DNA from: a virus
Lineage: Duplodnaviria; Heunggongvirae; Uroviricota; Caudoviricetes
Length of the DNA stretch: 14,605 nt
Strand: one strand, 5' to 3'
IMG/VR virus record: IMGVR_UViG_2648501787_000003
Shown: positions 1,119 through 14,605 of the stretch, in pieces
Numbering within the stretch: the first letter of the stretch is position 1
How the letters are laid out: each line of letters starts with the position of its first letter
Made by a program: the position numbers and the translations under genes
The notes under the pieces: model-generated
Databases searched by the model: none
What the model was told of the DNA's origin: nothing
What the model saw: the letters and a program-made list of their open reading frames with translations, nothing else

Positions 1119-1720
1119 GGATTCACTCTCATTGTGTCAATAACATGGACCGCCCCGCCTTCATGCGCGGTGCCACCGGAAATAATCGTTTCGTTGATAT
1201 ACGGATAGATCGTGATTTCTTCGCCAAGATAGCTGGCGGCTCCCACCCAATGCGGGCCGCTGGTCTGCAGATTGATGGACATGCCGATCATGTGGCGGCT
1301 ACATGGTTTGGCATCGCTTATCAGTCGCTCAAGTTCCAGATAGGTATCTTCAGTGATGCCCTGGTCCTGCACGCCGATATCCAGGCGAAACGTGCCCGGT
1401 GCCTCTCCGGTTTGCCACCACTCAATAATGCGGATCAGAAAGCCGAACGGCTCCACCACCCGCCGCACGGCACTGGTGGTCCCTTTATGCTGATGAATAT
1501 AAAAAGCATCCTTCACCACCTGGCGCTTGACGCTTTCTGTCCAGCCCTCGTCCCAGCGATCCACAGAGAACGCCCAGGCGAGATAAGGCAGGAAACTGAC
1601 CGGACAGGTTGCCGGATTCCACAAGTCACGAAGCGGCACCTGCAGATCAGAAATCCCGCTGCAGGTTTGCGCCAGTCGGCGCTCCAGTGGTGTTGAACCC
1701 GGTGGCAGCAGACTATTCAT
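1115..1720 (-). CDS. I: Baseplate assembly protein gpI
   Basis: 201-aa ORF, ATG at 1720; position between J and H matches P2 order; start overlaps J stop by 8 nt (operon coupling). Confidence 0.8.
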   Translation of the reverse strand: MNSLLPPGSTPLERRLAQTCSGISDLQVPLRDLWNPATCPVSFLPYLAWAFSVDRWDEGWTESVKRQVVKDAFYIHQHKGTTSAVRRVVEPFGFLIRIIEWWQTGEAPGTFRLDIGVQDQGITEDTYLELERLISDAKPCSRHMIGMSINLQTSGPHWVGAASYLGEEITIYPYINETIISGGTAHEGGAVHVIDTMRVNP

Positions 1721-2621
1721 CCGTTCCTCCGTTGGTTACGCTCCACTGCGTACATGATGCCGCCTGTGTTTTGTTCAGGACCACATCCGCCAGAGGAGAA
1801 GCCAGCTCCACACGCTGCACACCCTCAACATGCAGGGCGGCAAAGATGGCGCTACGGCGAATATCCCGACCAAGACGCGTCTGACTGGCGATGTACTTCT
1901 GCAGGCTGGCTTTTGCCGCTGCCATTACCGGCTCTGCTTCCGGTCCCGGATAGAGAAAAATGGTGGCTTCCACGCGATACGGGATGATTTCTGCGCTGCG
2001 AACCGTAAGACGGTCAGCCACCGGGCGGACGTTCTCACTGTTCAGAGCTTTTTCCACCACGTCCAGCAGGTCTTTTTCTGCAGTTCCATCGCCTTCGCGG
2101 CTAAGGACTGTCAGCACCACCTCTGCAGGTGCCGGGCTGGTTGCACTGGCATCCGCCACCCGACCGTCGGCGCTTCGGGCATGAAATTCATAAGCTGCAG
2201 TTGGCCCCGCAACTGAAAGCCCTTCAAAGGCTGCAGGCACACGCAGGCGTAACGCTTCATCGCTTTCCATCACAGCTGCAACGGGCGGCACAGCGTCATT
2301 ATCAGCAGGCGTCACCGTCAGGCGTTTCACGTTGTAGTTGGCAGCGAGCTGGTCAAGATCGCTGCCCATCGCGTAAGCCACCATCACAGCCTGCGCGGCT
2401 TCGTTAATGCGCTGGCGCAGAAGCAACTCACGGTAAGCGTTCTCCTGCAGCAATTTGGTGACGGGTTCAGATTCCAGTTTCAGCGTGCGGATCACTGCTT
2501 CCTGCTCATCTTTCGGATGAAGCGCAACAAATTCGGCCTTGCGTTCGGCAAGCAGCGTCTCAAAGTCCGGCACATCCACAATCTGCGGCGCAGGCAACTG
2601 CGAAAGGTCAATCACTGCCAT
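1713..2621 (-). CDS. J: Baseplate assembly protein gpJ (gp6-like wedge)
   Basis: Track ORF is 1713..2660; I place the start at the internal ATG at 2621 (MAVIDLSQLPAP...), preceded by CAGGAGCAGAGA (SD GGAG at ~8 nt). About 302 aa, similar in size to P2 gpJ; start overlaps W stop. Confidence 0.8.
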   Translation of the reverse strand: MAVIDLSQLPAPQIVDVPDFETLLAERKAEFVALHPKDEQEAVIRTLKLESEPVTKLLQENAYRELLLRQRINEAAQAVMVAYAMGSDLDQLAANYNVKRLTVTPADNDAVPPVAAVMESDEALRLRVPAAFEGLSVAGPTAAYEFHARSADGRVADASATSPAPAEVVLTVLSREGDGTAEKDLLDVVEKALNSENVRPVADRLTVRSAEIIPYRVEATIFLYPGPEAEPVMAAAKASLQKYIASQTRLGRDIRRSAIFAALHVEGVQRVELASPLADVVLNKTQAASCTQWSVTNGGTDE

Positions 2622-2967
2622 TCTCTGCTCCTGTTGATACGGAAAGGGAAACAGGCACACCGTTATTACGCCGCCCGCTCAGCGCCACCACCATTGAACC
2701 GTCAAAATTGCTGTTGATGGTGATGGAATCCAGCGTCATCCGTGGCTCCCAGCGACTCAGCGCCACATACACTGCCGACATGACCTGCAGGCGTAATGCC
2801 GGATTTTGTGGCTGGTCTATCAGTGCCGACAGCAGGGAACCATATTCACGGCGAGCAATGCGGCTACCCTGCGGCGTCAGCAGAATGTCCCGCACCGACT
2901 GGCGCAGATGGTCAATATCAGTAATGGCTTTACCGCTGGTATTGTTCATCCCGCTATAAAGCGTCAT
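2608..2967 (-). CDS. W: Baseplate wedge protein gpW (gp25-like)
   Basis: 119 aa; ATG at 2967 overlaps V stop (ATGA); SD GGAGG ~9 nt upstream. Sequence resembles P2 gpW (…GSRIARREYGSLL…DQPQNPAL…). Confidence 0.85.
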   Translation of the reverse strand: MTLYSGMNNTSGKAITDIDHLRQSVRDILLTPQGSRIARREYGSLLSALIDQPQNPALRLQVMSAVYVALSRWEPRMTLDSITINSNFDGSMVVALSGRRNNGVPVSLSVSTGAENGSD

Positions 2968-3542
2968 ACCGGGCCTCCGGTTGTATCGCCGCCTTTCAGG
3001 ACGCCAGTATGCTGATGCGCATCAACCACGATCCCGTTAGAACTCATCGCTCCGCCGCCCTGGGTAACGCCACCATTGATCACCACTTCGCTGTTAATGC
3101 GCGTGCGGTCAGCCTCCAGTACAAACTCACTGGTTTTCATGGTGATGTTGTCAGCGGCCTCAATGACCATTGATTTGATGCCCCTGACATACCAGCGCCC
3201 GGTGGCGGGTTCATATTCAAACCAGCCACCGTCAGGATGTTCTGTCACGCAGGCGTCCGCCGACGTCGACGGTGGTGCGAACTGATTCGAATAGACAGCG
3301 GGCAGCGCAAAGGCAGTCTCCAGATTGCCGCCCAGACTCAGCAGCACCACCTGCTCACCTTCTGATGGTTTCCACCATGTGCGGGCATTACCCGCGCGCA
3401 GCGTCAGCCAGTTAATCCAGTTAGTTTCAAGGTCGCCCGTTTTCACCCGGCAAAGCCAGTTTGTCCTGTCCACTTCGGTGACTACCCCAGTGCGGATCAG
3501 GTTGGTGATAAGGCGCATGATTTCGGTTAATTGTGCGTTCAT
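2964..3542 (-). CDS. V: Baseplate central spike / assembly protein gpV
   Basis: 192 aa, ATG at 3542; resembles P2 gpV, including the C-terminal HxH (AHQHTG) motif; first gene after the S-V intergenic dyad. Confidence 0.85.
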   Translation of the reverse strand: MNAQLTEIMRLITNLIRTGVVTEVDRTNWLCRVKTGDLETNWINWLTLRAGNARTWWKPSEGEQVVLLSLGGNLETAFALPAVYSNQFAPPSTSADACVTEHPDGGWFEYEPATGRWYVRGIKSMVIEAADNITMKTSEFVLEADRTRINSEVVINGGVTQGGGAMSSNGIVVDAHQHTGVLKGGDTTGGPV

Positions 3543-3587
3543 AGGGAAAGGTTGCCATCAGGGGAAGAAAGGCGGCAGTGCTGCAAC

Positions 3588-3607
3588 TTGTATCAGTGCT
3601 GATACAA
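3588..3607 (-). promoter_or_regulatory. Perfect 9-bp inverted repeat with 2-bp spacer containing TGT-N12-ACA; candidate Ogr/Delta-type late-activator site (P_V-like)
   Basis: ttgtatcag-tg-ctgatacaa in the 68-bp S-V intergenic region; TGT at 3589-3591 and ACA at 3604-3606. Dyad centre is only ~55 bp from the V ATG, so the promoter geometry is unverified. Confidence 0.4.
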
Positions 3608-3610
3608 AAA

Positions 3611-4057
3611 TCACCCCGCCAGCCATTGCAGAATCATGTCGCGGGTCATTGCCTCAACATCATCATTTACACCCAGAAGGCGACGCTCTGCGTAACGGAC
3701 CTCCGGTCCTTTGCGGCTGACGCGATCACGTAAGCCGTAGTGATGAACACGGGCAATGCGCTGTACCTTGCCTTCAAACTGCACGCTGGCAGAGTCGGCG
3801 CTGGCGGCAGTTTTCAGGTATTTTGTGGTGCGCAGCTTTGTAAACATCTGACGTTTGATGCGCCCCTTTTTGCTGCGTGCTGTTACCCTGCGCGGCTCAT
3901 AACTGCTGCCATCAGGATTGCGCTGCATCCTGATGTTCTGCTGCTGTGTCCGGCGCAGTTCCTGCGCCAGCTGGCGCATCATGCGGCTTCTTGCGGCTGG
4001 CTCCAGATTCGCCAATAATGCACTCAGCCAGTTGTCCACCTTCTGCAGTTCAGCCAC
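3611..4057 (-). CDS. S: Tail completion protein gpS
   Basis: 148 aa, basic; position between R and V matches P2. Track start at 4057 is a GTG overlapping the R stop; exact start is uncertain. Confidence 0.75.
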   Translation of the reverse strand: MAELQKVDNWLSALLANLEPAARSRMMRQLAQELRRTQQQNIRMQRNPDGSSYEPRRVTARSKKGRIKRQMFTKLRTTKYLKTAASADSASVQFEGKVQRIARVHHYGLRDRVSRKGPEVRYAERRLLGVNDDVEAMTRDMILQWLAG

Positions 4058-4481
4058 GTTTCACCGTCCACATTTCTTCAGGTTCATCAGGTTCCGCTAC
4101 CGCTTCAACGTTCGACACACTGCCGTCAGTGCTGACTAGCACACGCTCCGTCAGTTGCAGGTTAAGGCTGATATCACAGACATCGTTGCGCAGAATATCC
4201 ACCTCAAAGGTGAATAGCTTTTCCCGTAACGCCGGGTTATTGATGGCATCGGGCTGGTTATCCCGCAGCCACAGCAAAACCGGGGCCATCAGCAGATTCT
4301 GGTCGCCGCTGAAATCCTCAATCACCACGTTCAGGGTGTAGCGGTACTCCCATGACATGGAGCTGGCCCCCGTGGCAACCAGCGAACCGTTATCCACAAA
4401 CAGATGCAGTTTGTCCGGGTTATTGCGGACATAAGGCACCGCTTTATTGAGGGCGTGGCGCAGGGATTGTGGTTTGTTCAC
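4050..4481 (-). CDS. R: Tail completion protein gpR
   Basis: Track ORF is 4050..4502 (TTG). I prefer GTG at 4481, preceded by AGGAGCGAAACA (SD AGGAG at 7 nt). Resulting N-terminus VNKPQSLRHALNKAV... aligns with the P2 gpR N-terminus (…KPDSLRRAL…), as do FVDNGS and NQPD. Confidence 0.8.
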   Translation of the reverse strand: MNKPQSLRHALNKAVPYVRNNPDKLHLFVDNGSLVATGASSMSWEYRYTLNVVIEDFSGDQNLLMAPVLLWLRDNQPDAINNPALREKLFTFEVDILRNDVCDISLNLQLTERVLVSTDGSVSNVEAVAEPDEPEEMWTVKRG

Positions 4482-4734
4482 TGTTTCGCTCCTGACACGC
4501 AATAATCATGTCCACTTTGTCTGCACAGACCGCCCAGGCGGCCTCCGTTTCATCCAGCAATGCGTTCAGATCACCGTTAGTGCGCGGCGCTGTCTGATCC
4601 AGCCGACACGGCGTCACTCGCGGACAACCACTGACGGTAAGCTGCACCTCCGGTGAGTGCCGGACGTTCCCGCAGCCGGATAATGTCAGCAGGCAAAGGA
4701 GTATCAGCCCAGCGGCGTAAATCCTCGTTCTCAC
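4444..4734 (-). CDS. lysC: LysC / Rz1-like outer-membrane spanin lipoprotein (embedded overlapping gene)
   Basis: 96-aa ORF in an alternate frame, overlapping the 3' part of lysB and the 5' end of R. GTG start at 4734 with SD GAGGAA ~8 nt upstream. N-terminus has a hydrophobic signal peptide and lipobox LTLSGC; Pro/Thr-rich as in Rz1 proteins. Confidence 0.6.
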   Translation of the reverse strand: MRTRIYAAGLILLCLLTLSGCGNVRHSPEVQLTVSGCPRVTPCRLDQTAPRTNGDLNALLDETEAAWAVCADKVDMIIACQERNSEQTTIPAPRPQ

Positions 4735-5005
4735 GTTTCAGTTCCTCGATCCGGCGTTGTCGTTGTCTCAGCTGTGCGCTGGTCTGTTCTGCTTCGGCAT
4801 AGAGCCGCGCCTGCTCCCGGTTATTGGTTTCAGTCAGAATGGACAGGCTGATAAGCTGGCTGTTGCTCTTTGCCAGTGCCTGGCTTTTGCTCTGCAGCTC
4901 GTTTGCCTGCGTGCTGATGGTCTGGCTGGCATCAGCCAGCCGCCACGTCTGCCAGCCCAGCGCCGCCAGTAATAACGCCAGCACAACCAGCAGCAACCGG
5001 TTCAT
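4577..5005 (-). CDS. lysB: LysB / Rz-like inner-membrane spanin
   Basis: 142 aa; N-terminal signal-anchor MNRLLLVVLALLLAALGW, then a charged Q/E/R-rich coiled-coil region; ATG at 5005 overlaps the lysA stop (ATGA). Confidence 0.75.
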   Translation of the reverse strand: MNRLLLVVLALLLAALGWQTWRLADASQTISTQANELQSKSQALAKSNSQLISLSILTETNNREQARLYAEAEQTSAQLRQRQRRIEELKRENEDLRRWADTPLPADIIRLRERPALTGGAAYRQWLSASDAVSAGSDSAAH

Positions 5006-5379
5006 GCTGCTACCTGTTGCGCCATCTGATTACGGGTGATCCAGAAGGCAATAACGGTCAGCAGATAAAAGACCAGGGTAATAGCCCACCCCGTCCATGC
5101 GAGACTTACAACAATCAGCAATCGCATCACCCAACAGATAAATACATTTTCTTTTCGGGTAATTGTCTTCAGCAAAGATGTCCTTAACTCCTGCCAGAGC
5201 GGGCCATTCTGAATTAACGCAGCCAGTGCTACCGGAATTACCGCCCATGTCAGCAAACAGGCTACCCAAACGCCGGACGCTGCCAGTACCGGAAAGATCC
5301 CCTGCGGATACACCATTGCTGCGATTAACAGCGCCATCCATAACATCAGAAACAGTCCGCTGATTAATTTCTTTTTCAT
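5002..5379 (-). CDS. lysA: LysA-like integral membrane lysis-timing protein (approximately four hydrophobic helices)
   Basis: Track ORF is 5002..5451; I place the start at ATG 5379 (MKKKLISGLFLML...), immediately after the endolysin stop, with GGGAG upstream. Several hydrophobic helices; position matches P2 lysA. Confidence 0.6.
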   Translation of the reverse strand: MKKKLISGLFLMLWMALLIAAMVYPQGIFPVLAASGVWVACLLTWAVIPVALAALIQNGPLWQELRTSLLKTITRKENVFICWVMRLLIVVSLAWTGWAITLVFYLLTVIAFWITRNQMAQQVAA

Positions 5380-5380
5380 T

Positions 5381-5893
5381 TCAGTTTGCTCCCTGTAAAC
5401 ACCAGGCCATCTCCCGCGCACGGCGGTTATCCAGCCCCTGATTAAACACACCTTTTACATAAACCCAGCGCGGCAACTGTCGGCACGCATCCGCCCAGCG
5501 CCGCTGATTGAGCAATTTCACCAGCGTGGAACTACAGGCATTGCCCGTCCCCACGTTGAAGGCAAACGACACCGTAGCGTCATACACCTTCTGTGGTGGC
5601 TGTTGCTTCACACACCTTTCCAGTGCCCGCTCCACACGCAGCACGTTGGAGATCAGCCCTTCTGCTGCCTGTCGTTCCGTGATTGTTTTGCCGGGAATGA
5701 CGCCCGACGTATTACCAATGCCGTCGGTCCAGACACCCGCGCTGCACTGATACGGCTGCAGACGACAACCTTCGTAATCGGCAATCAGTTTCAGCCCTTC
5801 CACGGAGGTGTGAAGCTGCTGAAAACCCGGCAGCGTGGCAGCAATAGCCAGCACGGCCCCGACAAGGCAGCGTTTAACGATTGATGGATTCAT
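5381..5893 (-). CDS. SAR-type endolysin (T4-lysozyme/GH24 fold, P1 Lyz-like)
   Basis: 170 aa. Gly/Ala-rich N-terminal hydrophobic segment (CLVGAVLAIAATLPGF) typical of signal-arrest-release domains. The catalytic region EGCRLQPYQCSAGVWTDGIGNT aligns position-for-position with T4 lysozyme E11-D20-T26 as E41-C50-T56, with additional Cys9 and Cys43. Confidence 0.85.
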   Translation of the reverse strand: MNPSIVKRCLVGAVLAIAATLPGFQQLHTSVEGLKLIADYEGCRLQPYQCSAGVWTDGIGNTSGVIPGKTITERQAAEGLISNVLRVERALERCVKQQPPQKVYDATVSFAFNVGTGNACSSTLVKLLNQRRWADACRQLPRWVYVKGVFNQGLDNRRAREMAWCLQGAN

Positions 5894-6089
5894 AGTCCTC
5901 CCGCGAGATCTGCCCGTCGCGCAGAAGCTGGTAGGCTTTGTGTTTGTAGTACCAGTTGATAGCCAGCATCAGCACACCAATCATCAGGCCGCCCAGCGTT
6001 GAGGCATCCTTGATGGACAAATCGCCCAGCCAGGCCAGCACAACGGCGATGCAGTACGTGATAAAGGCGCTGATTCGCTCAAGCGTCAT
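5874..6089 (-). CDS. Small two-TM holin (candidate pinholin)
   Basis: 71 aa; two hydrophobic helices (ISAFITYCIAVVLAWLG and GGLMIGVLMLAINWYY) and a charged C-terminal tail; directly upstream of the endolysin and overlapping it by 20 nt. Confidence 0.65.
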   Translation of the reverse strand: MTLERISAFITYCIAVVLAWLGDLSIKDASTLGGLMIGVLMLAINWYYKHKAYQLLRDGQISREDYESINR

Positions 6090-6092
6090 AAT

Positions 6093-6296
6093 TCAGTCCC
6101 ATAGCTGGACGGTCTGCACGGTGGTGGTGGCCGGAATGTCCGGCAGCTCCACCTGCAGCCCGTGAGGTAAAAAGGGGCCATATTCGGCAAGCCCCGGATT
6201 TGCCTTCAGTACCTGCTCCGTGACACCCTGCGTGCGCCCGTAATGACGCCAGCAAAGCGCGTCCACCGTGTCATACTGATGCGCACGCACTTTCAT
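6093..6296 (-). CDS. X: Tail protein gpX (LysM-like)
   Basis: 67 aa; resembles P2 gpX (…DTVDALCWRHYGRT…ANPGLAE…LPHG…VELPD…); ATG overlaps the L stop (ATGA). Confidence 0.8.
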   Translation of the reverse strand: MKVRAHQYDTVDALCWRHYGRTQGVTEQVLKANPGLAEYGPFLPHGLQVELPDIPATTTVQTVQLWD

Positions 6297-6760
6297 CAGA
6301 TAAGCTCCACTGTACAGTGCGGCGCATCCTGCACCCGGCTGATGGCCCAGCGGGCGTCACGCCACAAATCACCGCTGGATTCCGCCAGTTCCTCGCCTCG
6401 CTTCACACCGGATGCCGTGGCGTCATAGTCCTGGTATCGTTCGTTGAGCATGGCGCGTGCCCAGCAGTAAACCGCGTTGAAATAGTGCTGAATGCGCTCA
6501 CTTTTCCCGTCCAGCTGTTCTGCCGGAACCTCTGCCAGCGAGGCATACCCCAGCATCTGCTGGCGTCTGCGAAACTCATACAGCTCTGCGTTGACCTCCG
6601 AAATTGCCGACAGCGCAACCTGCTTTAAACGCGGCTGCGTCACCGTGCCGTCAGTGCGCATCACGCTGCGAAACTCCGACAGGTCCACATCAGGCCAGAA
6701 CGGTGTATTTCTGATGATTTCCGCCTGTTCCGGTGCCTGTTCTGGCGCAACAAACTTCAT
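6296..6760 (-). CDS. L: Capsid completion / head stabilisation protein gpL
   Basis: Resembles P2 gpL (…NAELYEFR…LWRDARWAISR…). Start chosen at ATG 6760 (MKFVAPEQ...) with SD CAGGAGAAAGCAGC; the track's longer form (6823) begins at a GTG with no SD, so the start is uncertain. Confidence 0.8.
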   Translation of the reverse strand: MKFVAPEQAPEQAEIIRNTPFWPDVDLSEFRSVMRTDGTVTQPRLKQVALSAISEVNAELYEFRRRQQMLGYASLAEVPAEQLDGKSERIQHYFNAVYCWARAMLNERYQDYDATASGVKRGEELAESSGDLWRDARWAISRVQDAPHCTVELI

Positions 6761-6855
6761 GCTGCTTTCTCCTGAAATAGAGGGCGGTGGACGGAGTTTT
6801 GATGTGGCTGTGCCTTTCGCCACCCCGTGCCGCCCGTGCGCGGGGGCACGTTCTG

Positions 6856-7506
6856 TCAGCGGCTGTCATTGCGCAGTCTGCGCTCCAGCTGCTGTTTGTC
6901 TTTTTTCACGCCACAGCGGGGATCGAGCTGCAACGCATGGTTGAGATGGTTAAGGGCGGAAGCCGGATTGCTTTCACTCAGGACAGCGCCAATCGCTTTA
7001 TGCAGACGCGCCCGTGACTGGTCCGGCATATCCAGACCGTCTGTCAGCTCCAGCGTCTGCAGCAACAGATCGGCATCAAAGCCGGTGGCGGCAAGCATTG
7101 CGCTCTGCGCCGCGTCTGCCATTTCCTCTGCCAGCACGGTCTGCACATTGCGGTTACCCAGTGGCATCACCCAGCCATGACGCAGGGCATGACATCCGAT
7201 CTCCAGCGCCCCGGCATAATCTCCGGCATCAATGCGCCACAGCATCACGTACATCAGCACGTCATCCTGTTGAGTGCCTCCGGCAGCCAGGACGCCCTCT
7301 GCCCAGGCGGCGTACTTCGGCAGCAGCTCCACCTTGATTTCCGCTTTTTTGACCGTGGACTGAACACCCTTGAGACGGCGGCGGTCTTCCGCCAGTTGCA
7401 GCAGCATCAGGTCATAGCCCGACGCGTGGAGAACACTGCCGCCCTCGCGGGCGGCCTGTTCAGCCTGAACGCGCAGGCGATGCTGCCGTGCGGGACTCAG
7501 GCTCAT
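6856..7506 (-). CDS. M: Terminase small (endonuclease) subunit gpM
   Basis: 216 aa; resembles P2 gpM (…QDD.LMYVMLWRID.GD.AGALEI…, GVKK near the C-terminus); ATG at 7506 lies 4 nt after the N stop. Confidence 0.85.
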   Translation of the reverse strand: MSLSPARQHRLRVQAEQAAREGGSVLHASGYDLMLLQLAEDRRRLKGVQSTVKKAEIKVELLPKYAAWAEGVLAAGGTQQDDVLMYVMLWRIDAGDYAGALEIGCHALRHGWVMPLGNRNVQTVLAEEMADAAQSAMLAATGFDADLLLQTLELTDGLDMPDQSRARLHKAIGAVLSESNPASALNHLNHALQLDPRCGVKKDKQQLERRLRNDSR

Positions 7507-7509
7507 GGA

Positions 7510-8568
7510 TTACGCTCCGGTTTCTGCTGCGGCGGCGCTGAAGTCGCCAATCTGGATGTTTTCCACAAGTGCGGCACAGCGGTAGTCCTCAACCACATAG
7601 GCTTCGTTAACGGATTCAAAGTTTTCAATCCGGTCACGTTTCGGGTTGTCGATAACTGAACGGCGGCGGGTGTCTTCCTGCCAGTAGATGGACAGGTTAT
7701 CCAGACGGGTGATCAGCAGTGCATTCGGCGGGAAGAACGGTGCACGCACGGCCTGCAGGCCACCCATGCGTTTCTGACTGATGATCATATCGGCAGCCAG
7801 TTTTTCACTGTTTTCCTGCTCTTTGTTAACCAGCGGGAAATACTTGTCAGACAGCAGTTCACGCCCGCAAATCACCACCAGATCGTCATCGTCCTGGTAG
7901 ACCACGTCGATAAGCTCATTGACGGCATCCATCACCACGGCGTCCAGGTTGGCATATTCGCCACCTTTACCGACTTTCACCGCGCCCGGTGTGGTTTCAC
8001 CGCCCATGGTGGTGCTGCCCATGACGTGATCCGGTGCATCCTCACGGATTTTCTGCAGCCAGCCTTTGTTCACATCCTGCAGCAGCGGGTTTTCGCTGCG
8101 GTTGGAGGTTTTCGCACGCTTCACGCCGTTAAAGCCGATCATGATGCGGTCCAGTGCCTGACGTTTCACGATGGCGTCACGGATACGCACCTGGAAATCC
8201 TGAAACTTCGCCCACAGGTCCAGCTTCGCGTAGGTCAGTACCGTGTCAAAGTTGGTCTGCTCGCATTTGTATTCCACATCGACCATCAGCGTAGGATCGA
8301 CAGGTTCACGCTCTTTCGCGGTGGTGTCAGTGGTTCCGGCAATGGTGCTACCAACACCCAACCCCAGCAGCTGACCGGACTGCTCAGTCACTGGCGTGAC
8401 GTTAATCAGCGTCAGGAAAGCGGCGGACTGCTGGATCTGGTCTTCCAGCGTCTGCTGTACAGACGGCTCCACGGTGAACTTGCTGGACAGTTCTTCAACT
8501 GCCACACCGTTCAGACGCGCCAGCTGCTGCAGGTAAGCGTTAAAAGCAAAGCGGGTATTCTTCTTCAT
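7510..8568 (-). CDS. N: Major capsid protein gpN
   Basis: 352 aa; strong resemblance to P2 gpN (TRFAFNAYLQQLARLNGV…FTVEPSV…IMIGFNGVKRA…NPLLQDVNKGWLQK). Confidence 0.9.
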   Translation of the reverse strand: MKKNTRFAFNAYLQQLARLNGVAVEELSSKFTVEPSVQQTLEDQIQQSAAFLTLINVTPVTEQSGQLLGLGVGSTIAGTTDTTAKEREPVDPTLMVDVEYKCEQTNFDTVLTYAKLDLWAKFQDFQVRIRDAIVKRQALDRIMIGFNGVKRAKTSNRSENPLLQDVNKGWLQKIREDAPDHVMGSTTMGGETTPGAVKVGKGGEYANLDAVVMDAVNELIDVVYQDDDDLVVICGRELLSDKYFPLVNKEQENSEKLAADMIISQKRMGGLQAVRAPFFPPNALLITRLDNLSIYWQEDTRRRSVIDNPKRDRIENFESVNEAYVVEDYRCAALVENIQIGDFSAAAAETGA

Positions 8569-8584
8569 CAGGTTTTGTGCTCCA

Positions 8585-9418
8585 TCAGCAATTGGTCAGA
8601 GTGTCAGCGGGGGCGTTACCGCCTGTTGCACGCTGGCGGTAGTCCTGGCGGCTGTCTTCATGACTCAGCTTATTCACCAGTTCGTTAAAGGCGGTCTGCT
8701 GTGCCTGCAGGGCAGTCTCCAGCTCAGACAGACGTTCTTCCTGCTCAGACAGGGATTTTTCGGTGCGTGCGCTCAGGTTTTGCTGCTCAGTGGCGACCAA
8801 CTCCACGGCCTTATGCACATCAGAGAACCGGGCATCGTCGGACTGCTCTTTTTTGGTGAACAGTGCCGTGACGCGGGCAAACAGGGACGGCTTGTCCTCC
8901 TGGATTTCTTCCAGTTCGATCACCGTTTCCTCTGCGGCGGTAAAGAGATTGGCGGGATTCTGCTTGCGGTTTGCCAGCGGGTTATGGGCTGCACTGGCGC
9001 TGAATGTCAGCATTTCAGTGCCCAGACTGGCAGGGTCATCAGTGGCAGCCAGGCCGACCAAGTAGGCTTTGCCCGTATCAGCAAACTTCGGACTGACTTC
9101 CATAGATGTGAATAATTTCTGGCCTTTTTTCACCAGTTCCACCAGGGATTCCGTTGGCTCAACGTCGGCATACAGCGCCATCTTGCCTGCCAACGGACCT
9201 TCCGTGATTTCTTCAGCAAACAGCGCCGTCACCTTGCCGTAGCGGTTAAAGGTGCTGTCCGGCAGATAAGACTTGATGTGCTCAAGGTTAATCAGCGCGG
9301 TATACACCGCCGGGTTGTAGCTGGCTGCCATCTGTTCCAGCCATTCACGCTGGATTTCGCGTCCGTCGGTGGTGGCACCTTCCACCCCGATGCGAAAACG
9401 CTTTGCTTTCACTGTCAT
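8585..9418 (-). CDS. O: Capsid scaffolding protein gpO
   Basis: 277 aa; resembles P2 gpO (FRIGVEGATTDGR…INLEH…YLVGLAATDDPASLGTE…SDDARFSDVH…ATGG…TNC); first gene of the leftward late operon. Confidence 0.9.
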   Translation of the reverse strand: MTVKAKRFRIGVEGATTDGREIQREWLEQMAASYNPAVYTALINLEHIKSYLPDSTFNRYGKVTALFAEEITEGPLAGKMALYADVEPTESLVELVKKGQKLFTSMEVSPKFADTGKAYLVGLAATDDPASLGTEMLTFSASAAHNPLANRKQNPANLFTAAEETVIELEEIQEDKPSLFARVTALFTKKEQSDDARFSDVHKAVELVATEQQNLSARTEKSLSEQEERLSELETALQAQQTAFNELVNKLSHEDSRQDYRQRATGGNAPADTLTNC

Positions 9419-9496
9419 GAGCCGTGCTCCGTTAGAAAAAACTTACTGGAGCCTTATGGTTGCGGTGATGGGGGCAGTGAAACAATGCGCGGTATT

Positions 9497-9514
9497 TGTA
9501 CCGACAACCACACA
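9497..9514 (-). promoter_or_regulatory. TGT-N12-ACA dyad in the O/P divergent intergenic region; candidate late-promoter activator site (P_O-like)
   Basis: TGTaccgacaaccacACA. Centre ~88 nt upstream of the O ATG, with a possible -10 (CATAAG, minus strand, 9458-9453) ~50 bp downstream of the centre. An adjacent ACA-N12-TGT (9482-9499) shares the TGT. Confidence 0.45.
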
Positions 9515-9560
9515 AACCGCAGGCGGGGAAAGCCTTCATTCAAGGCTGTAGGTTTGTGCC

Positions 9561-11327
9561 ATGAACACCACACTGACACCCGCAGATCTCGATCCCCGTC
9601 GGCAGGCCATGCTGCTGTACTTTCAGGGATACCGCGTCGCCCGCATTGCTGAAATGCTGGGCGAGAAAGTTGCAACTGTTCACAGCTGGAAAAAACGCGA
9701 CAAGTGGGGTGACTATGGGCCGCTGGATCAGATGCAGCTCACCACCGCCGCACGCTACTGCCAGCTCATTATGAAGGAGCACAAAGAAGGGAAAGATTTC
9801 AAAGAGATTGACCTGCTGGCGCGCCAGTCGGAGCGCCACGCGCGGATCGGCAAGTTTAACAATGGCGGCAACGAAGCCGATTTAAACCCTAACGTCGCCA
9901 ACCGCAACAAAGGCCCACGCCGTCAGCCGGAAAAGAATGTTTTCACCGATGAACAGATTGAGAAGCTGGAAGAAATCTTCCATTCCTCCATGTTCAACTA
10001 CCAGCGCCACTGGTGGGAAGCCGGAAAAACCAACCGCATCCGCAACCTGCTGAAGTCACGCCAGATCGGCGCAACCTTCTATTTTGCCCGTGAAGCCCTG
10101 ATTGACGCCCTGCTGACCGGACGTAACCAGATTTTCCTTTCCGCCAGCAAGGCACAGGCCCACGTCTTTAAGCAGTACATCTTCGACTTCGCCAAAGAAG
10201 TGGAGGTGGAGCTGAAAGGTGATCCGATGGTGCTTCCTAACGGTGCCACGCTTTACTTCCTCGGCACCAATGCCCGCACTGCCCAGAGTTATCACGGCAA
10301 CCTGTATCTGGATGAATATTTCTGGATACCGAAATTTCAGGAGCTGCGTAAAGTGGCTTCCGGTATGGCTATTCACAAAAAATGGCGACAAACCTATTTT
10401 TCCACGCCATCAAGCCTGACCCACAGTGCTTATCCGTTCTGGTCCGGTGCGCTGTTCAACCGTGGACGCAACAAAGCCGACAAGGTGGACATCGACCTGT
10501 CCCACAGCAATCTGGCCCCCGGCCTGCTGTGCGCAGACGGGCAATACCGCCAGATAGTCACCGTGGAAGATGCGGTGCGCGGCGGCTGCAACCTGTTCGA
10601 CCTTGACCAGTTGCGCATGGAGTACAGCCCGGACGAATACCAGAACCTGCTGATGTGCGAGTTTGTGGACGATCTCGCGTCCGTGTTTCCGCTCAGCGAG
10701 CTGCAGGCGTGCATGGTGGACAGTTGGGAAGTCTGGACCGACTTTCATGCACTGGCCCTTCGCCCGTTTGGGTGGCGCGAAGTGTGGATCGGTTATGACC
10801 CGGCAAAAGGTACGCAGAACGGCGACAGCGCCGGATGCGTGGTGGTGGCACCGCCAGCCGTGCCGGGCGGTAAGTTCCGTATTCTTGAGCGCCACCAGTG
10901 GCGCGGGATGGACTTCCGCGCCCAGGCGGACGCCATCAAAAAACTGACCGAACAGTACAACGTGACATATATCGGCATCGACTCGACGGGTGTCGGTCAC
11001 GGGGTTTACGAGAACGTGAAAGCGTTTTTTCCTGCCGTCCGGGAGTTTGTCTACAACCCCAACGTTAAAAATGCCCTGGTACTCAAGGCATACGACATTA
11101 TCAGCCACCGCCGTCTGGAGTTTGACGCCGGGCACACCGACATTGCGCAGTCATTCATGGCAATCCGTCGCGCCACCACCGCCAGTGGCAACCGCCCGAC
11201 CTATGAAGCCAGCCGCAGCGAAGAAGCCAGCCACGCCGATCTGGCCTGGGCAACGATGCACGCACTGTTTAATGAACCGCTGCAGGGCGAGTCCGCCAAT
11301 ACAAGCAATATTGTGGAGATTTTTTGA
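9561..11327 (+). CDS. P: Terminase large (ATPase) subunit gpP
   Basis: 588 aa; the N-terminal region resembles P2 gpP as I recall it (…DLDPRRQA…SWKKRDKW…KEGKDFKEIDLLARQ…); ATG at 9561; stop TGA overlaps the Q start. Confidence 0.9.
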   Translation: MNTTLTPADLDPRRQAMLLYFQGYRVARIAEMLGEKVATVHSWKKRDKWGDYGPLDQMQLTTAARYCQLIMKEHKEGKDFKEIDLLARQSERHARIGKFNNGGNEADLNPNVANRNKGPRRQPEKNVFTDEQIEKLEEIFHSSMFNYQRHWWEAGKTNRIRNLLKSRQIGATFYFAREALIDALLTGRNQIFLSASKAQAHVFKQYIFDFAKEVEVELKGDPMVLPNGATLYFLGTNARTAQSYHGNLYLDEYFWIPKFQELRKVASGMAIHKKWRQTYFSTPSSLTHSAYPFWSGALFNRGRNKADKVDIDLSHSNLAPGLLCADGQYRQIVTVEDAVRGGCNLFDLDQLRMEYSPDEYQNLLMCEFVDDLASVFPLSELQACMVDSWEVWTDFHALALRPFGWREVWIGYDPAKGTQNGDSAGCVVVAPPAVPGGKFRILERHQWRGMDFRAQADAIKKLTEQYNVTYIGIDSTGVGHGVYENVKAFFPAVREFVYNPNVKNALVLKAYDIISHRRLEFDAGHTDIAQSFMAIRRATTASGNRPTYEASRSEEASHADLAWATMHALFNEPLQGESANTSNIVEIF

Positions 11328-12373
11328 TGGGAAAGAGTAAGAAAAACCGCGCTGCGGCGATGAATCACATCCAGCATAAAAGCCAGACTTCAGCCGAAGC
11401 ATTCAGCTTCGGCGATCCCGTTCCTGTTCTGGACCGCCGAGAATTACTGGACTATGTGGAATGCGTACAGATGGACCGTTGGTATGAGCCGCCCGTCAGC
11501 TTTGACGGACTGGCGCGCACCTTCCGCGCCGCCGTGCATCACAGTTCCCCGATTGCAGTAAAGTGCAACATTCTGACCAGTACCTATATCCCTCATCCGC
11601 TGCTCAGCCAGCAGGCTTTTTCGCGTTTTGTGCAGGACTATCTGGTATTTGGTAACGCCTACCTGGAGAAACGCACGAACCGCTTCGGTGAAGTTATCGC
11701 CCTTGAACCGACCCTGGCAAAATACACCCGACGCGGATTAGACCTGGATACCTACTGGTTTGTGCAATACGGCATGACTACGCAGCCGTATCAGTTCACG
11801 AAAGGCAGCATTTTTCATCTGATGGAACCGGACATCAACCAGGAGATCTACGGCCTGCCCGGTTATCTTTCTGCCATTCCGTCAGCCCTGCTCAACGAGT
11901 CCGCCACGCTGTTCCGCCGCAAGTATTACATTAACGGCAGTCATGCAGGCTTCATCATGTACATGACCGATGCAGCGCAGAACCAGGAGGATGTGAACAA
12001 CCTCCGCAATGCGATGAAAAGCGCCAAAGGTCCTGGTAACTTCCGTAACCTGTTTATGTACTCGCCTAACGGTAAAAAGGACGGGCTTCAGATTATCCCG
12101 TTGTCAGAAGTGGCGGCGAAGGATGAGTTCCTGAATATCAAGAACGTGAGCCGGGACGACATGATGGCGGCGCATCGTGTGCCGCCACAAATGATGGGGA
12201 TAATGCCTAATAATGTCGGGGGGTTTGGGGATGTAGAAAAGGCAAGCCGTGTCTTTGTCCGCAACGAGTTGATACCTCTGCAGAAACGCCTACAGGAACT
12301 TAACAACTGGCTGGGCGATGAAGTTATACGTTTCGAGCCGTACACTTTAGATATTCAGAATGAAAAGAAATAA
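11327..12373 (+). CDS. Q: Portal (capsid vertex) protein gpQ
   Basis: About 348 aa, immediately downstream of P as in P2. The track starts at TTG 11324; I prefer ATG 11327, which overlaps the P stop (TGATG). Stop TAA at 12371-12373, followed by a hairpin. Confidence 0.85.
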   Translation: MGKSKKNRAAAMNHIQHKSQTSAEAFSFGDPVPVLDRRELLDYVECVQMDRWYEPPVSFDGLARTFRAAVHHSSPIAVKCNILTSTYIPHPLLSQQAFSRFVQDYLVFGNAYLEKRTNRFGEVIALEPTLAKYTRRGLDLDTYWFVQYGMTTQPYQFTKGSIFHLMEPDINQEIYGLPGYLSAIPSALLNESATLFRRKYYINGSHAGFIMYMTDAAQNQEDVNNLRNAMKSAKGPGNFRNLFMYSPNGKKDGLQIIPLSEVAAKDEFLNIKNVSRDDMMAAHRVPPQMMGIMPNNVGGFGDVEKASRVFVRNELIPLQKRLQELNNWLGDEVIRFEPYTLDIQNEKK

Positions 12374-12427: not shown

Positions 12428-12697
12428 TTACCAATTTCTTTTTTCGGAGTTTAGCCAATCACCGCATGGATAATATCTTGACGCCCATTCACCTTGTAAA
12501 CGAGCTACAAACAGAATATCGTTACTATCGACCCTGGCTTGGAGTCCGTCACGCAGTTGAGTTGCGGTCAGCGTTGTATCTACTAACCAAAATGATTCAA
12601 GATATTTACAGTATGTAAATTGCTTTAGATAGTCAAAAACTTCATCGTAGTTTCTTCCCGGAGCCTTCAAGTCATAGGTTATACAATAAATAGCCAT
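12428..12697 (-). CDS. Hypothetical 89-aa protein, predicted alpha/beta (ferredoxin-like beta-alpha-beta-beta-alpha-beta pattern); function unknown
   Basis: ATG at 12697 lies 3 nt after the stop of the upstream Cys-rich ORF; GGAG upstream; AT-rich codon usage unlike the structural genes; hairpin immediately after the stop. MAIYCITYDL... is a hydrophobic beta-strand-like N-terminus. No family assignment possible. Confidence 0.5.
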   Translation of the reverse strand: MAIYCITYDLKAPGRNYDEVFDYLKQFTYCKYLESFWLVDTTLTATQLRDGLQARVDSNDILFVARLQGEWASRYYPCGDWLNSEKRNW

Positions 12698-12700
12698 TCT

Positions 12701-12883
12701 CTAAGCTCCGCATTTTTTATCATTTGGGGAACATCTTAACCTGCGACATTTGCGGCAATACGATTGAGGGATCAGCCGCTCTCCTTCCATAGTTCTAAAA
12801 CCAAACACTTCTTCAATTTTGTTCAAATCACCACTTGCAATAACCCCACAGCAGGGGCAGACAGCCTCAATTTGAAATGCCAT
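12701..12883 (-). CDS. Hypothetical small Cys-rich protein (putative zinc ribbon), 60 aa
   Basis: Seven Cys in 60 aa, arranged CPCC…(30 aa)…CRKC…C…C. ATG at 12883 preceded by TGGAGATAGAC (GGAG 6 nt upstream). The track's 81-aa version starts at TTG 12946. Tightly coupled to the downstream 89-aa ORF. Confidence 0.45.
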   Translation of the reverse strand: MAFQIEAVCPCCGVIASGDLNKIEEVFGFRTMEGERLIPQSYCRKCRRLRCSPNDKKCGA

Positions 12884-12982
12884 GTCTATCTCCATTCCAC
12901 ATGTTGAATGTAGGGTAATACTTCCTTTCAAGCAAAAATGAGACAAGGATCTTGAAACCTAATTTAAACTTGCTTGCGCGCG

Positions 12983-13001
12983 CTCGTATCCCCGCCACGC
13001 C
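12983..13001 (-). other. Candidate cos site (cohesive-end region) of the P2/186 type
   Basis: Minus strand reads 5'-GGCGTGGCGGGGATACGAG-3'. By recollection the P2 and 186 cohesive ends are GGCGAGGCGGGGAAAGCAC and GGCGTGGCGGGGAAAGCAT (15/19 match to 186). Orientation relative to Q matches P2, where the 3' end of Q faces the left cos end. Confidence 0.45.
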
Positions 13002-13023
13002 TGCCCGCTTTATGTAGTAGTTT

Positions 13024-13130
13024 TCATGCAGGTGCATGATCTACGCGAAAGCCCGCCAGTTCTGGCGGGCCCTAGCAAAAACGATCCTCAAACGATCATG
13101 CGATCTCATGCAGCATAGTCATGCACGATC
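13024..13130. repeat. Cluster of TCATGC(A) repeats with five GATC sites
   Basis: TCATGCA at 13024-13030, 13106-13112 and 13119-13125; TCATGCg at 13096-13102; inverted TGCATGA at 13033-13039, forming the palindrome tcatgca-gg-tgcatga. GATC at 13038, 13083, 13094, 13102 and 13127. Confidence 0.5.
13051..13070 (-). terminator. GC-rich hairpin downstream of the 280-aa membrane-protein gene; possible terminator or cos-region structure
   Basis: gcccgccag-tt-ctggcgggc (9-bp perfect arms); on the minus strand it is followed by TTTCGCG, a weak T-tract. Confidence 0.35.
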
Positions 13131-13961
13131 ATTTGACTCAGCATCTGCTGCACGCTTGCTGCGCGAAGATGCACTTTTACTATCAATCTTTCGACAGTTC
13201 TTTCTATCCCTGGCTTCATTTTCTTTAAATTTGTTATATGTCTCAGTATCAAAAAACGAAATTGTTTCAACCTCATCTTTTGGTATGAGCACACGGAAAT
13301 CTTCGATATTAAGCCGAGACATTCCACTTATCACACCACTATCAAGATAATGTTGGTGATAGTTAGTCGTGATACTAATCGTTAGATCATCTTTATCCCG
13401 ATATCCGCTTAACATCGGGAGAAGTTCAAGGTGCTCTGAAAGCCCGTTTTCTAACGCCGGACAAGTAACAAGACCAACATAGATTTTGCGAGACGACAGA
13501 GTTGCTATGATCGGAAACTGTCTTGCGGACGCTTCCATGAGTAATGATTCGAAAGCGTTATTACCCACAGCTTTAGCTAAGGCATCCCAGCGACGATCTC
13601 CACGTGATGTGCGTAACTTATTTCCAAAACCTGAAATCGCAGCGAGGACAATTGAAATCATAACCCATGCTATCTGTTTGATTTCATTTATTCTTTGAAG
13701 TTTGTCTTTCGATGAAGACAACATGCCATTAAAACTGTCAGGTGTTAGATTCAAGGCATTAGCCAGCCAACGAAACCCTCCGCTGACGTTCAAAATAAAG
13801 GTGAAAAAACCGCCAAGGAGAAAAAAAACGATACCCCAGGCAGCCACAAAAAAATAAGCGTCCCAGCCGTTGGAACGCTTATATCGGTATCTTGTTGAAA
13901 GTGATAGGTTTACATAAATAAAACCACTAACCAAAATCACTGCTAAAAGTAATGTTGCCAT
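13119..13961 (-). CDS. Hypothetical membrane protein, 280 aa: three N-terminal TM helices plus ~160-aa C-terminal soluble domain with charged Ser/Lys/Arg-rich tail; function unknown
   Basis: Long ORF in AT-rich DNA; hydrophobic helices at about residues 2-21, 36-58 and 98-113. ATG at 13961..13959 overlaps the TAA of the upstream 71-aa ORF (TAATG), indicating translational coupling. Hairpin 13051-13070 lies ~50 nt past the stop. Confidence 0.65.
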   Translation of the reverse strand: MATLLLAVILVSGFIYVNLSLSTRYRYKRSNGWDAYFFVAAWGIVFFLLGGFFTFILNVSGGFRWLANALNLTPDSFNGMLSSSKDKLQRINEIKQIAWVMISIVLAAISGFGNKLRTSRGDRRWDALAKAVGNNAFESLLMEASARQFPIIATLSSRKIYVGLVTCPALENGLSEHLELLPMLSGYRDKDDLTISITTNYHQHYLDSGVISGMSRLNIEDFRVLIPKDEVETISFFDTETYNKFKENEARDRKNCRKIDSKSASSRSKRAADAESNDRA

Positions 13962-14176
13962 TATCTGGTTCTATTAGTTTTCTCTTTTACAGTGCTCGTT
14001 TTGATGCCTTCAAGCTTATCCATCTGTGCCTTGATGGCATCCATTGCTCTTTTGTTAGACAAGTCTACGGACACAAAACCATCTTTACTAAGATTGAGTT
14101 TGTCCTGGTTCTCTTTAAGAACCCTTGCCAGACGTTCAACTGGGTTACCCAGGCTAAATGCGGCGATGCTTGACAT
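13961..14176 (-). CDS. Hypothetical 71-aa soluble protein (predicted mostly helical, Lys/Glu-rich); first gene of a two-gene cassette
   Basis: ATG at 14176 preceded by a G-rich SD (AAAAGGGGGAGTT-ATG); stop overlaps the start of the membrane protein. The antisense plus-strand ORF 13992..14252 is the alternative reading, so confidence is moderate. Confidence 0.5.
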   Translation of the reverse strand: MSSIAAFSLGNPVERLARVLKENQDKLNLSKDGFVSVDLSNKRAMDAIKAQMDKLEGIKTSTVKEKTNRTR

Positions 14177-14365
14177 AACTCCCCCTTTTCACATGGCGCG
14201 GAAGTCTACACTCCGACGCCTACAACCTCAACAGATTATCTTTAAAATTTAGACAACAATATCATCTGTTGATTGCGTTACTTAAACTTAAGTTCAATGC
14301 GCTCGATCATGCAAGCTGTTTCTTAAGAACTGTTAATTTCCTGGCATATATAGTGGTTAAGGTAA

Positions 14366-14593
<228 letters not shown>

Positions 14594-14605
14594 AGCTATA
14601 ACCCC

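Follow-up and report, generated by a model that had tools for sequence, protein, structure and literature searches.

The window analysed in this work (the whole stretch of 14,605 nucleotides; IMG/VR record IMGVR_UViG_2648501787_000003) comes from a P2/186/Fels-2-like E. coli prophage and contains, beside cos, a cassette of two genes coding for a 71-aa soluble protein and a 280-aa membrane protein. The region of interest is 100% identical to several complete genomes. We consider it very nearly certain that the cassette is a real, autonomous two-gene accessory module, i.e. a moron. It is a mobile and strongly conserved unit, carried by several phage types and by plasmids with a preference for moron or accessory sites, and its products appear to be two translationally coupled proteins that work together. 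The overall reading that we favour, tentatively and with slightly less than even confidence, is that of an autonomous prophage moron that is probably an anti-phage membrane module; as to an anti-phage function of any kind, we see the balance as even. The cassette and its limits are as follows:

13961-14176, minus strand: gene 1, encoding the 71-aa protein, ATG start (open reading frame (ORF) call, phrog_9843)
13119-13961, minus strand: gene 2, encoding the 280-aa inner-membrane protein, ATG start (ORF call, phrog_3630)
13127-14375, no strand: moron insert of 1,249 bp, 40.6% GC, delimited against an empty site
12974-13126, no strand: conserved left (cos) flank of the slot, from flank comparison with other genomes
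14376-14510, no strand: conserved right flank of the slot, from flank comparison

Both ORFs are present on the minus strand where the original prediction had placed them, including the TAATG in which the stop of gene 1 and the start of gene 2 share one base (13961). Gene 2 matches phrog_3630 at 8.8e-99 and gene 1 matches phrog_9843 at 1.4e-36, both being families of unknown function. The ratio of non-synonymous to synonymous substitution rates (dN/dS), calculated against copies of ~79% nucleotide (nt) identity, is 0.035-0.048 for gene 2 and 0.18-0.22 for gene 1, which indicates strong purifying selection. Because of this selection and the recurrent PHROG families we regard the two as genuine genes rather than ORFs that arose by chance. 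In the same sequence pairs the dS of the small gene is 0.46-0.49 as compared to 1.9-2.3 for the adjoining large gene, i.e. approximately four times lower. A recombination mosaic could account for this, as could a constraint imposed on synonymous sites by RNA structure or coupling.

The insert was delimited as 1,249 bp because phage vB_EcoM-813R9 has an empty site in which the left and right flanks are joined with 7 bp between them. Its base composition is unlike that of the phage backbone: 40.6% GC as compared to 56.1% for bases 1-12373 (the structural genes), the original estimate being ~30-45% versus ~57%. Within the insert, 100-nt windows range from 29 to 56% GC, and GC at third codon positions is 0.35-0.45 in the cassette genes versus 0.70 in terminase gene P. 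The cos flank was found in 1,276 of 5,426 complete E. coli genomes and the cassette in 52. Most of the flank-bearing genomes have either an empty slot (many with a span of ~293 bp) or other cargo, such as an unrelated ~1-kb insert or genes for DUF6236, DUF4145, DUF8087 or a P-loop NTPase, and in Fels-2 the same slot is filled by a different, 243-aa gene. The cassette thus has the presence/absence polymorphism with precise boundaries, as well as the deviating composition, by which morons are recognised. The slot is indeed a variable one, as had been proposed, and the two genes are not core genes conserved in all P2-like phages, given the empty sites and the many flank-bearing genomes without the cassette.

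The same pair recurs in very different surroundings. A viral scan gave 232 matching IMG/VR contigs, and the contexts were taken from the best 80. A recognisable phage context was seen in 64 of these 80; in 58 the pair lies in the A-Q (cos) region of P2-like phages with portals that share 44-100% identity with that of the window, in 5 it lies in lambda-like tail clusters, and 16 lack the markers tested. The pair was also found in a lambda-like Enterobacter prophage between gpK and gpI, in L117 between the tape-measure gene and gpM, in an Aeromonas siphovirus prophage directly ahead of the tape-measure gene, in a lambdoid prophage between the replication/integrase and the lysis genes, in a Shewanella P2-like prophage at its cI end, and in Cronobacter phage phiES15 between the integrase and attP. 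It also occurs at phage-free chromosomal sites, and in the accessory region of Salmonella IncC conjugative plasmids, beside an AAA ATPase and a methyltransferase.

Two distant loci may be described separately. On plasmid pSTY1-2010K-1587 (L055, 2872-5789) a pair of 68 aa and 262 aa follows a 547-aa AAA-family ATPase, with mer genes and a DNA methyltransferase also nearby; the pair is present on 25 Salmonella plasmids. In a Chromatiaceae metagenome-assembled genome (L031, 2771-5548 and 5791-6789) the pair is directly downstream of a 926-aa homologue of PD-Lambda-4_A (E 3e-169).

The family of the 280-aa protein is very large. At E<=1e-3 an exhaustive profile search yielded 2,877 cluster representatives (50% identity), of which 1,995 were at <=1e-10; a word-indexed search gave just 57 homologues, all from gammaproteobacteria. 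The best 150 family members listed are nearly all 240-300 aa long and match end to end, and some short database entries of the family are clearly frameshifted fragments. When searched with phmmer or a profile hidden Markov model (HMM), the small partner was found directly upstream of the large gene in 24 of 40 GTDB species-genome loci, and direct inspection revealed that in all 30 loci inspected (three of them contigs from other look-ups) the large gene is preceded on the same strand by an ORF of 54-88 aa, whose end is 0-20 nt away. These loci span Bryobacteraceae (Acidobacteria), Legionellaceae, Methylophilus, Pseudomonas and Chromatiaceae. Judged from the sequences, the pair is a conserved unit in which the small partner is obligate. 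Pfam, NCBIfam and PADLOC gave no match of use for either protein, for 71 family members or for 10 distant small partners. Pfam DUF6338 (PF19865) matches 3 of the 71 diverse members weakly (best E 4.6e-5) and does not match the 280-aa protein of the window at E up to 1. On these weak matches of three members the two families may be remotely related; DUF6338 is itself without known function and has essentially no literature.

The position of the cassette in the prophage is defined by the following features:

9561-11327, plus strand: terminase gene P, running toward cos
11324-12373, plus strand: portal gene Q, running toward cos
12983-13001, no strand: cos-like 19-mer CTCGTATCCCCGCCACGCC (complement GGCGTGGCGGGGATACGAG), matched by eye to the P2 and E1114 cos regions
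14447-14605, minus strand: 3' end of a DinI-like gene, the rest of which is beyond the window edge

The 19-mer, named cos-like by comparison with what we take to be the P2 cohesive-end sequence, is separated from the stop of the 280-aa gene by 118 bp. Past the insert, the identical E. coli locus has the order DinI-like gene, gene for a 62-aa protein (hyp62), replication endonuclease gene A. Judged from its neighbours, the cassette is the old/tin-equivalent on the cos-proximal side of the P2-like A-Q hotspot, as had been supposed. The cos-region sequences of P2 and E1114 that were compared are printed in Table S2A of Rousset 2022 (PMC9122126). The old, tin and orf91 genes of P2 and other hotspot cargo occupy the same slot between cos and the replication-gene side, and they too are AT-rich, polymorphic in presence and absence, and independent of the neighbouring cargo. 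PADLOC and Pfam gave no match in the pair to Old (ABC ATPase-TOPRIM) or Tin, and the equivalence is one of genomic position alone.

In 18,150 loci of the gpA-gpQ region of P2-like phages 1,650 arrangements were counted, several systems were validated and the region was defined as a defence hotspot (Rousset 2022, PMC9122126), which a 2026 follow-up confirmed. We count the location of the cassette in this experimentally validated hotspot toward an anti-phage role. Exactly this pair (WP_000094764 and WP_021556032) is listed as 'hypothetical + hypothetical' in Table S5A of the 2022 study (PMC9122126). Hence, the original prediction was right in calling the system uncharacterised, as no characterisation or functional test of the pair was found in the literature, full-text accession search included; the pair had already been catalogued, though unannotated. 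Its absence of a family match also holds, as neither gene matches a characterised family in Pfam, NCBIfam, PADLOC or the PDB sequences. An undescribed system, possibly one of abortive infection, is a reasonable but unproven hypothesis. What had been overlooked are the Sm/LSm-like domain described below, the very large family beyond the P2 phages, and the Table S5A listing.

PADLOC and structure prediction, both suggested along with the original prediction, gave no match of use and a Sm-like fold, respectively. The AlphaFold2 (AF2) model of the 280-aa protein was built on 42 homologues and has a mean predicted local distance difference test score (pLDDT) of 79.5. Its three regions are encoded as follows:

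13623-13958, minus strand: three transmembrane (TM) helices, codons for aa 2-113 (hydropathy, charge, AF2 helices, alignments)
13248-13556, minus strand: Sm/LSm-like beta-barrel domain, codons for aa 136-238, signature P-x-x-SGYRDKD
13122-13247, minus strand: long, charged and poorly conserved C-terminal helix/tail, codons for aa 239-280

The protein has three hydrophobic segments (~aa 2-21, 35-58 and 96-113), the third of which is rich in Ala, Gly and Ser. Since loop 1 and the segment after TM3 are rich in Lys and Arg (positive-inside), the predicted topology is N-out/C-in, with a cytoplasmic part of ~165 aa; hydropathy, charge and AF2 agree here with the three N-terminal helices and the ~160-aa cytoplasmic domain given originally. 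In the model the three TM helices are followed by two short helices, a beta-barrel (strands 151-155, 159-165, 177-189, 194-200, 224-227 and 231-236) and the long charged helix. The predicted model has the N-terminal helix and the five strongly bent antiparallel beta-strands that define the Sm/LSm/Hfq fold. A structure search of BFVD gave weak matches only, one of them annotated as Sm-like; in hhalign comparisons with Sm proteins just the Sm1-like stretch aligns, and a profile search of the PDB sequences gave no matches. The Sm2 and WYL motifs are absent, and P-x-x-SGYRDKD is found instead; what further sets the domain apart from Sm, LSm, Hfq and WYL proteins is its fusion to three TM helices and an insertion of ~22 residues before the last strands.

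The best-conserved parts of the protein are cytoplasmic. G13, Y161, P182, S185, G186, R188 and Y201 are invariant in the broad family, and G32, Y36, G43, K159, G163, Y187 and F237 are conserved in at least 90% of its sequences. The cytoplasmic loop 1 (RYRYKRSNGWDAYF) is conserved, while the periplasmic loop 2 is the most variable part. The profile of phrog_23864 (143 positions) matches the Sm-like domain alone (aa 124-247, E 1.8e-26), and tblastn matches in Pseudomonas phages vB_Pae_U5 and U6 span only this domain, thus soluble stand-alone versions of it may exist.

The 71-aa protein is basic (pI 9.9), has no hydrophobic segment and is soluble. Its AF2 model, weaker than that of the large protein (pLDDT 67.5), contains a helix at 12-22, a beta-hairpin centred on Gly33 (KDGFVSVDL) and a helix at 42-56. 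An alignment of 20 diverse small partners shows a common helix-hairpin-helix layout with Gly33 invariant. No Pfam match was found for the protein and 10 diverse partners (11 scanned, E up to 1). An AbrB/MazE-like antitoxin, suggested by the 'VVGRGTLV' of distant partners, was considered and rejected, as it has no Pfam support and the predicted topology is wrong. NCBI and UniRef name the protein 'multidrug ABC transporter ATPase'. This is plainly a propagated legacy misannotation, because the protein has only 71 aa and no such domain was found in any domain search.

It is useful to compare these features to MscS. The core architecture of MscS consists of three TM helices and a Sm-like beta-domain, and rings of 6 or 7 members are the usual assembly of Sm, LSm and Hfq proteins and of the MscS beta-domain. 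The 280-aa protein resembles MscS in having three TM helices (N-out, C-in), an Ala/Gly/Ser-rich TM3 and then a cytoplasmic Sm-like beta-domain. It differs in that the C-terminal alpha/beta domain of MscS is replaced by one long charged helix, so that only the first two of the three defining features (three TM, Sm-like, C-terminal alpha/beta) are present. Homology to MscS was considered and rejected, as there is no match to the MS_channel profile and MscS is not in the top structural matches.

The MscS-type core would also fit a lysogenic-conversion or physiological membrane function unrelated to phages, e.g. as a channel for ions or osmolytes or as a factor in envelope stress from which the host benefits. 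The very large and broadly distributed family, and the many distant homologues that lie among housekeeping genes, point in the same direction. Against it are the lack of sequence or top-ranked structural likeness to MscS, the missing alpha/beta domain, the strong enrichment of the closer relatives at prophage moron sites (a recognisable phage context in 64 of the best 80 among 232 IMG/VR contigs), and a dedicated small partner that has no counterpart in such channels. We consider a purely physiological role distinctly improbable.

Returning to the anti-phage membrane module, we propose that the cassette is made in the lysogen and would benefit the host-prophage pair, most plausibly by hindering other phages. 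The 280-aa protein would be located in the inner membrane with its Sm/LSm-like barrel exposed to the cytoplasm, and a Sm-like ring of 6 or 7 copies beneath the membrane might bundle the TM3 helices into a gated pore analogous to MscS. The 71-aa partner may be a plug, an inhibitor or a signal adaptor that keeps the pore shut or links it to a signal from the phage, perhaps a nucleic acid to which the Sm-like domain binds. Upon infection the pore would open and the membrane potential would collapse, leading to abortive infection by a logic similar to that of RexAB. Expression in the lysogen, ring formation, the pore, the regulatory role of the partner and the anti-phage phenotype are what we infer, and the gated-pore abortive mechanism is in its specific form doubtful.

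Like lambda RexAB, the cassette is a two-gene prophage module of a soluble and a multi-pass inner-membrane protein and is plausibly expressed in the lysogen. The difference is that here the soluble partner is tiny (71 aa) and the membrane protein bears the large folded domain, the reverse of RexA/RexB; the PADLOC search detected no homology. The pair also differs from the validated hotspot systems AC1 '2TM + 1TM + TIR', 'hp+hp+hp', DUF4238 and DprA-PRTase. Identity with Rousset AC1 was examined because Klebsiella phage ST15-OXA48phi14.1 (L002) has a TIR gene near the pair. That gene lies across cos from the pair, and the proteins of AC1 (a 2TM protein of 125 aa, a 1TM protein of 186 aa, and TIR) are unrelated. 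The proteins of the P4 'hydrolase + 3TM' system, whose membrane partner was also considered, are unrelated as well.

Several observations weigh against the reading as an anti-phage module. The Sm-like assignment depends on a predicted monomer with a pLDDT of 79.5 and has no significant sequence support (hhalign gave a probability of 0.9% versus SmAP1 and 0.3% versus Hfq), and MscS is absent among the top structural matches of the model. PADLOC-DB v2.0.0 gave nothing for the 71-aa protein and a chance-level E of 0.14 for the 280-aa protein; over 71 family members PADLOC produced no model match beyond one stray pAgo hit. The pair is not among the systems cloned by Rousset 2022, and its accessions do not appear in the supplements of Vassallo 2022 and DefensePredictor. 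The 20 most distant loci have mixed surroundings, with integrases, transposases and MazF-type toxins beside housekeeping genes; of their 134 neighbour ORFs just a handful match defence models, and many are housekeeping genes. The defence association outside prophages is therefore modest. Lastly, the divergence of the cassette in P2-like phages tracks that of the portal, as cassette identities of 100, 87, 80, 74, 55 and 47% go with similar portal identities; across L057-L127 the values for the 280-aa protein and the portal fall from 100%/100% to ~46%/45%. Because of this parallel course we think that the sequences suggest long retention within P2-like lineages and not the rapid swapping typical of defence cargo.

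Long-term retention would also suit superinfection exclusion without cell death, in which the membrane complex blocks the entry of phage DNA, as HK97 gp15, P22 SieA and T4 Imm do, and in which a cytoplasmic Sm-like ring might capture the entering DNA end. The cassette resembles these three in being a phage or prophage moron that encodes an inner-membrane protein, and several siphovirus prophages have the pair just before the tape-measure gene or between it and gpM. The HK97 exclusion moron gp15 has a comparable position. The variability of periplasmic loop 2 is as expected of a surface that co-evolves with phages. On the other hand, the known exclusion proteins are small, encoded by single genes and narrow in distribution, they have no Sm-like domain, partner or detectable homology to our protein, and the 280-aa family is spread far more widely than they are. 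A universally conserved cytoplasmic partner, the cytoplasmic location of the most conserved parts, and the occurrence of the family on plasmids, at chromosomal sites far from phages and in Acidobacteria are likewise hard to reconcile with exclusion, which we regard as unlikely.

The proximity to cos and the divergence in step with the P2-like backbones may also be taken as signs that the cassette serves the phage itself, e.g. in the timing of lysis, in DNA packaging or ejection, or in the control of lysogeny, the more so as lysis cassettes include membrane proteins with small partners. Such a role appears extremely unlikely, since most close relatives lack the cassette, among them viable phage isolates with an empty site, and since it occupies unrelated positions in other types of phage as well as sites on plasmids and in phage-free chromosomal regions.

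A broader speculation is that the pair represents a widespread unrecognised class of immune modules, in which a membrane-anchored Sm-like ring with a small partner senses phage nucleic acid or another cue and responds by pore opening or by a block of genome entry. Although we consider this quite unlikely, it would, if true, be the first Sm/Hfq-fold sensor-effector in anti-phage defence, and it would concern ~2,900 50%-identity clusters across prophages, plasmids and chromosomes of Proteobacteria and Acidobacteria.

The non-coding parts of the cassette contain several candidate regulatory elements:

14179-14185, minus strand: Shine-Dalgarno (SD) sequence GGGGGAG of gene 1, read from the sequence
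14203-14231, minus strand: predicted sigma-70 promoter with -35 TTGAGG (14231-14226), a 17-nt spacer and -10 TAGACT (14208-14203), read from the sequence
14228-14272, no strand: operator-like inverted repeat TCAACAGAT...ATCTGTTGA overlapping the -35, with 15-nt arms (14228-14242 and 14258-14272) that are 87% complementary
14282-14297, no strand: palindrome with a GAACTTAAGTT core, 5' of the promoter, kept even in the divergent cassettes L007 and L018
13051-13070, no strand: perfect 9-bp GC-rich hairpin GCCCGCCAG/CTGGCGGGC, 3' of gene 2 and within the conserved cos flank

Reading of the sequence revealed no SD for gene 2 that is comparable to that of gene 1, so that translation of gene 2 probably depends on coupling. 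About 200 bp 5' of the small gene travel along with the cassette. The consensus promoter scanner made no call at 14203-14231 (below its 9/12 threshold), and the promoter that we assign to the cassette is put forward because the pattern TTGnnG-17-TAnAnT is kept in the divergent cassettes L002-L007 and L018, with a -10 of TATAAT in L007, a Serratia copy. The CAACAG/CTGTTG arms of the inverted repeat are kept in L002-L006, and the repeat and the palindrome may be binding sites for some regulator, possibly the 71-aa protein. The hairpin at 13051-13070, a likely terminator, is also present in other P2-like cos regions (pFR109 sequence). No LexA box or SOS control was found upstream of the cassette, and no Rfam family matched its non-coding parts.

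This layout invites comparison with toxin-antitoxin (TA) systems. In an addiction module of this kind, a membrane toxin together with a small antitoxin/autorepressor would stabilise the element without a primary anti-phage role. As in type II systems, a small upstream gene overlaps the downstream effector gene (TAATG), the operator-like repeat lies over the predicted -35, and the pair resides on prophages, plasmids and islands beside integrases, transposases and MazF-type toxins. In 5 of 40 species-genome loci (L016, L018, L027, L028 and L034), several of them in Symbiopectobacterium, Photorhabdus or Xenorhabdus, the small gene is intact and the large one split or truncated. From the sequences, these cases are compatible with the loss of a costly or toxic effector and also with a bigger mutational target, and the 5:0 ratio of disruptions is approximately the one predicted by the fourfold difference in gene length. 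Moreover, the small proteins have no recognisable antitoxin or DNA-binding fold (RHH, AbrB, HTH, Phd) and match no such family (11 searched against Pfam, E up to 1), while a polytopic toxin of 280 aa with a folded cytoplasmic domain would be atypical. Addiction as the primary function is thus very improbable in our view.

A few further observations concern the neighbourhood of the cassette. The cargo on the portal (Q) side of cos changes independently of it, which explains why the distance from cassette to portal varies from 0.3 to 3 kb across the IMG/VR loci L057-L127. This cargo is a 557-aa protein in strain 210221272 (L001), the TIR protein already mentioned in Klebsiella phage ST15-OXA48phi14.1, and SieB or PIN_12 in the table of Rousset (PMC9122126). 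In the window, two genes are found between the stop of Q and cos:

12428-12697, minus strand: 89-aa Cas2-like protein (PADLOC Cas2b E 5e-4, Cas2 E 3e-3; phrog_1090)
12701-12946, minus strand: Cys-rich CxxC...CxxC (zinc-ribbon) protein

Since phrog_19700 matches residues 22-81 of the 81-aa ORF, the true start of the Cys-rich protein is probably Met22, giving ~60 aa. The two genes are found together, with 84% nt identity, in Klebsiella phages ST512-KPC3phi13.6 and ST258-KPC3phi16.1, and a stand-alone Cas2-like gene within a defence hotspot may merit separate attention. On the other side, a 9-bp stem (TTGCTGGCG / CGTCAGCAA, one G-U pair, 17-nt loop) is located at 14396-14446 on the minus strand, after the DinI-like stop (14447-14449) and before the insert boundary at 14375. 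As it has no T-run, it may represent a weak terminator or else a recombination landmark.

What this work adds is the exact extent of the moron, together with the findings that the large protein has a predicted Sm-like cytoplasmic domain, that its small partner is universal, that the family is very large, and that it turns up at moron sites in unrelated phages as well as on plasmids. Several validated defence systems have come from the cos-proximal hotspot of P2, but a large part of the cargo there still carries the label hypothetical, and the present cassette is cleanly delimited and small (1.25 kb) and thus directly clonable. Thousands of clusters of this family are without a Pfam, NCBIfam or PADLOC model, and the combination of three TM helices, a Sm-like domain and an obligate small partner is undescribed for defence or exclusion systems in the libraries and literature searched. 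If the pair is anti-phage, it would provide a new effector/sensor architecture for bacterial immunity and an annotation for thousands of genes. If it is not, its study would still define the function of a large orphan family of membrane proteins that is repeatedly carried by phages and plasmids.

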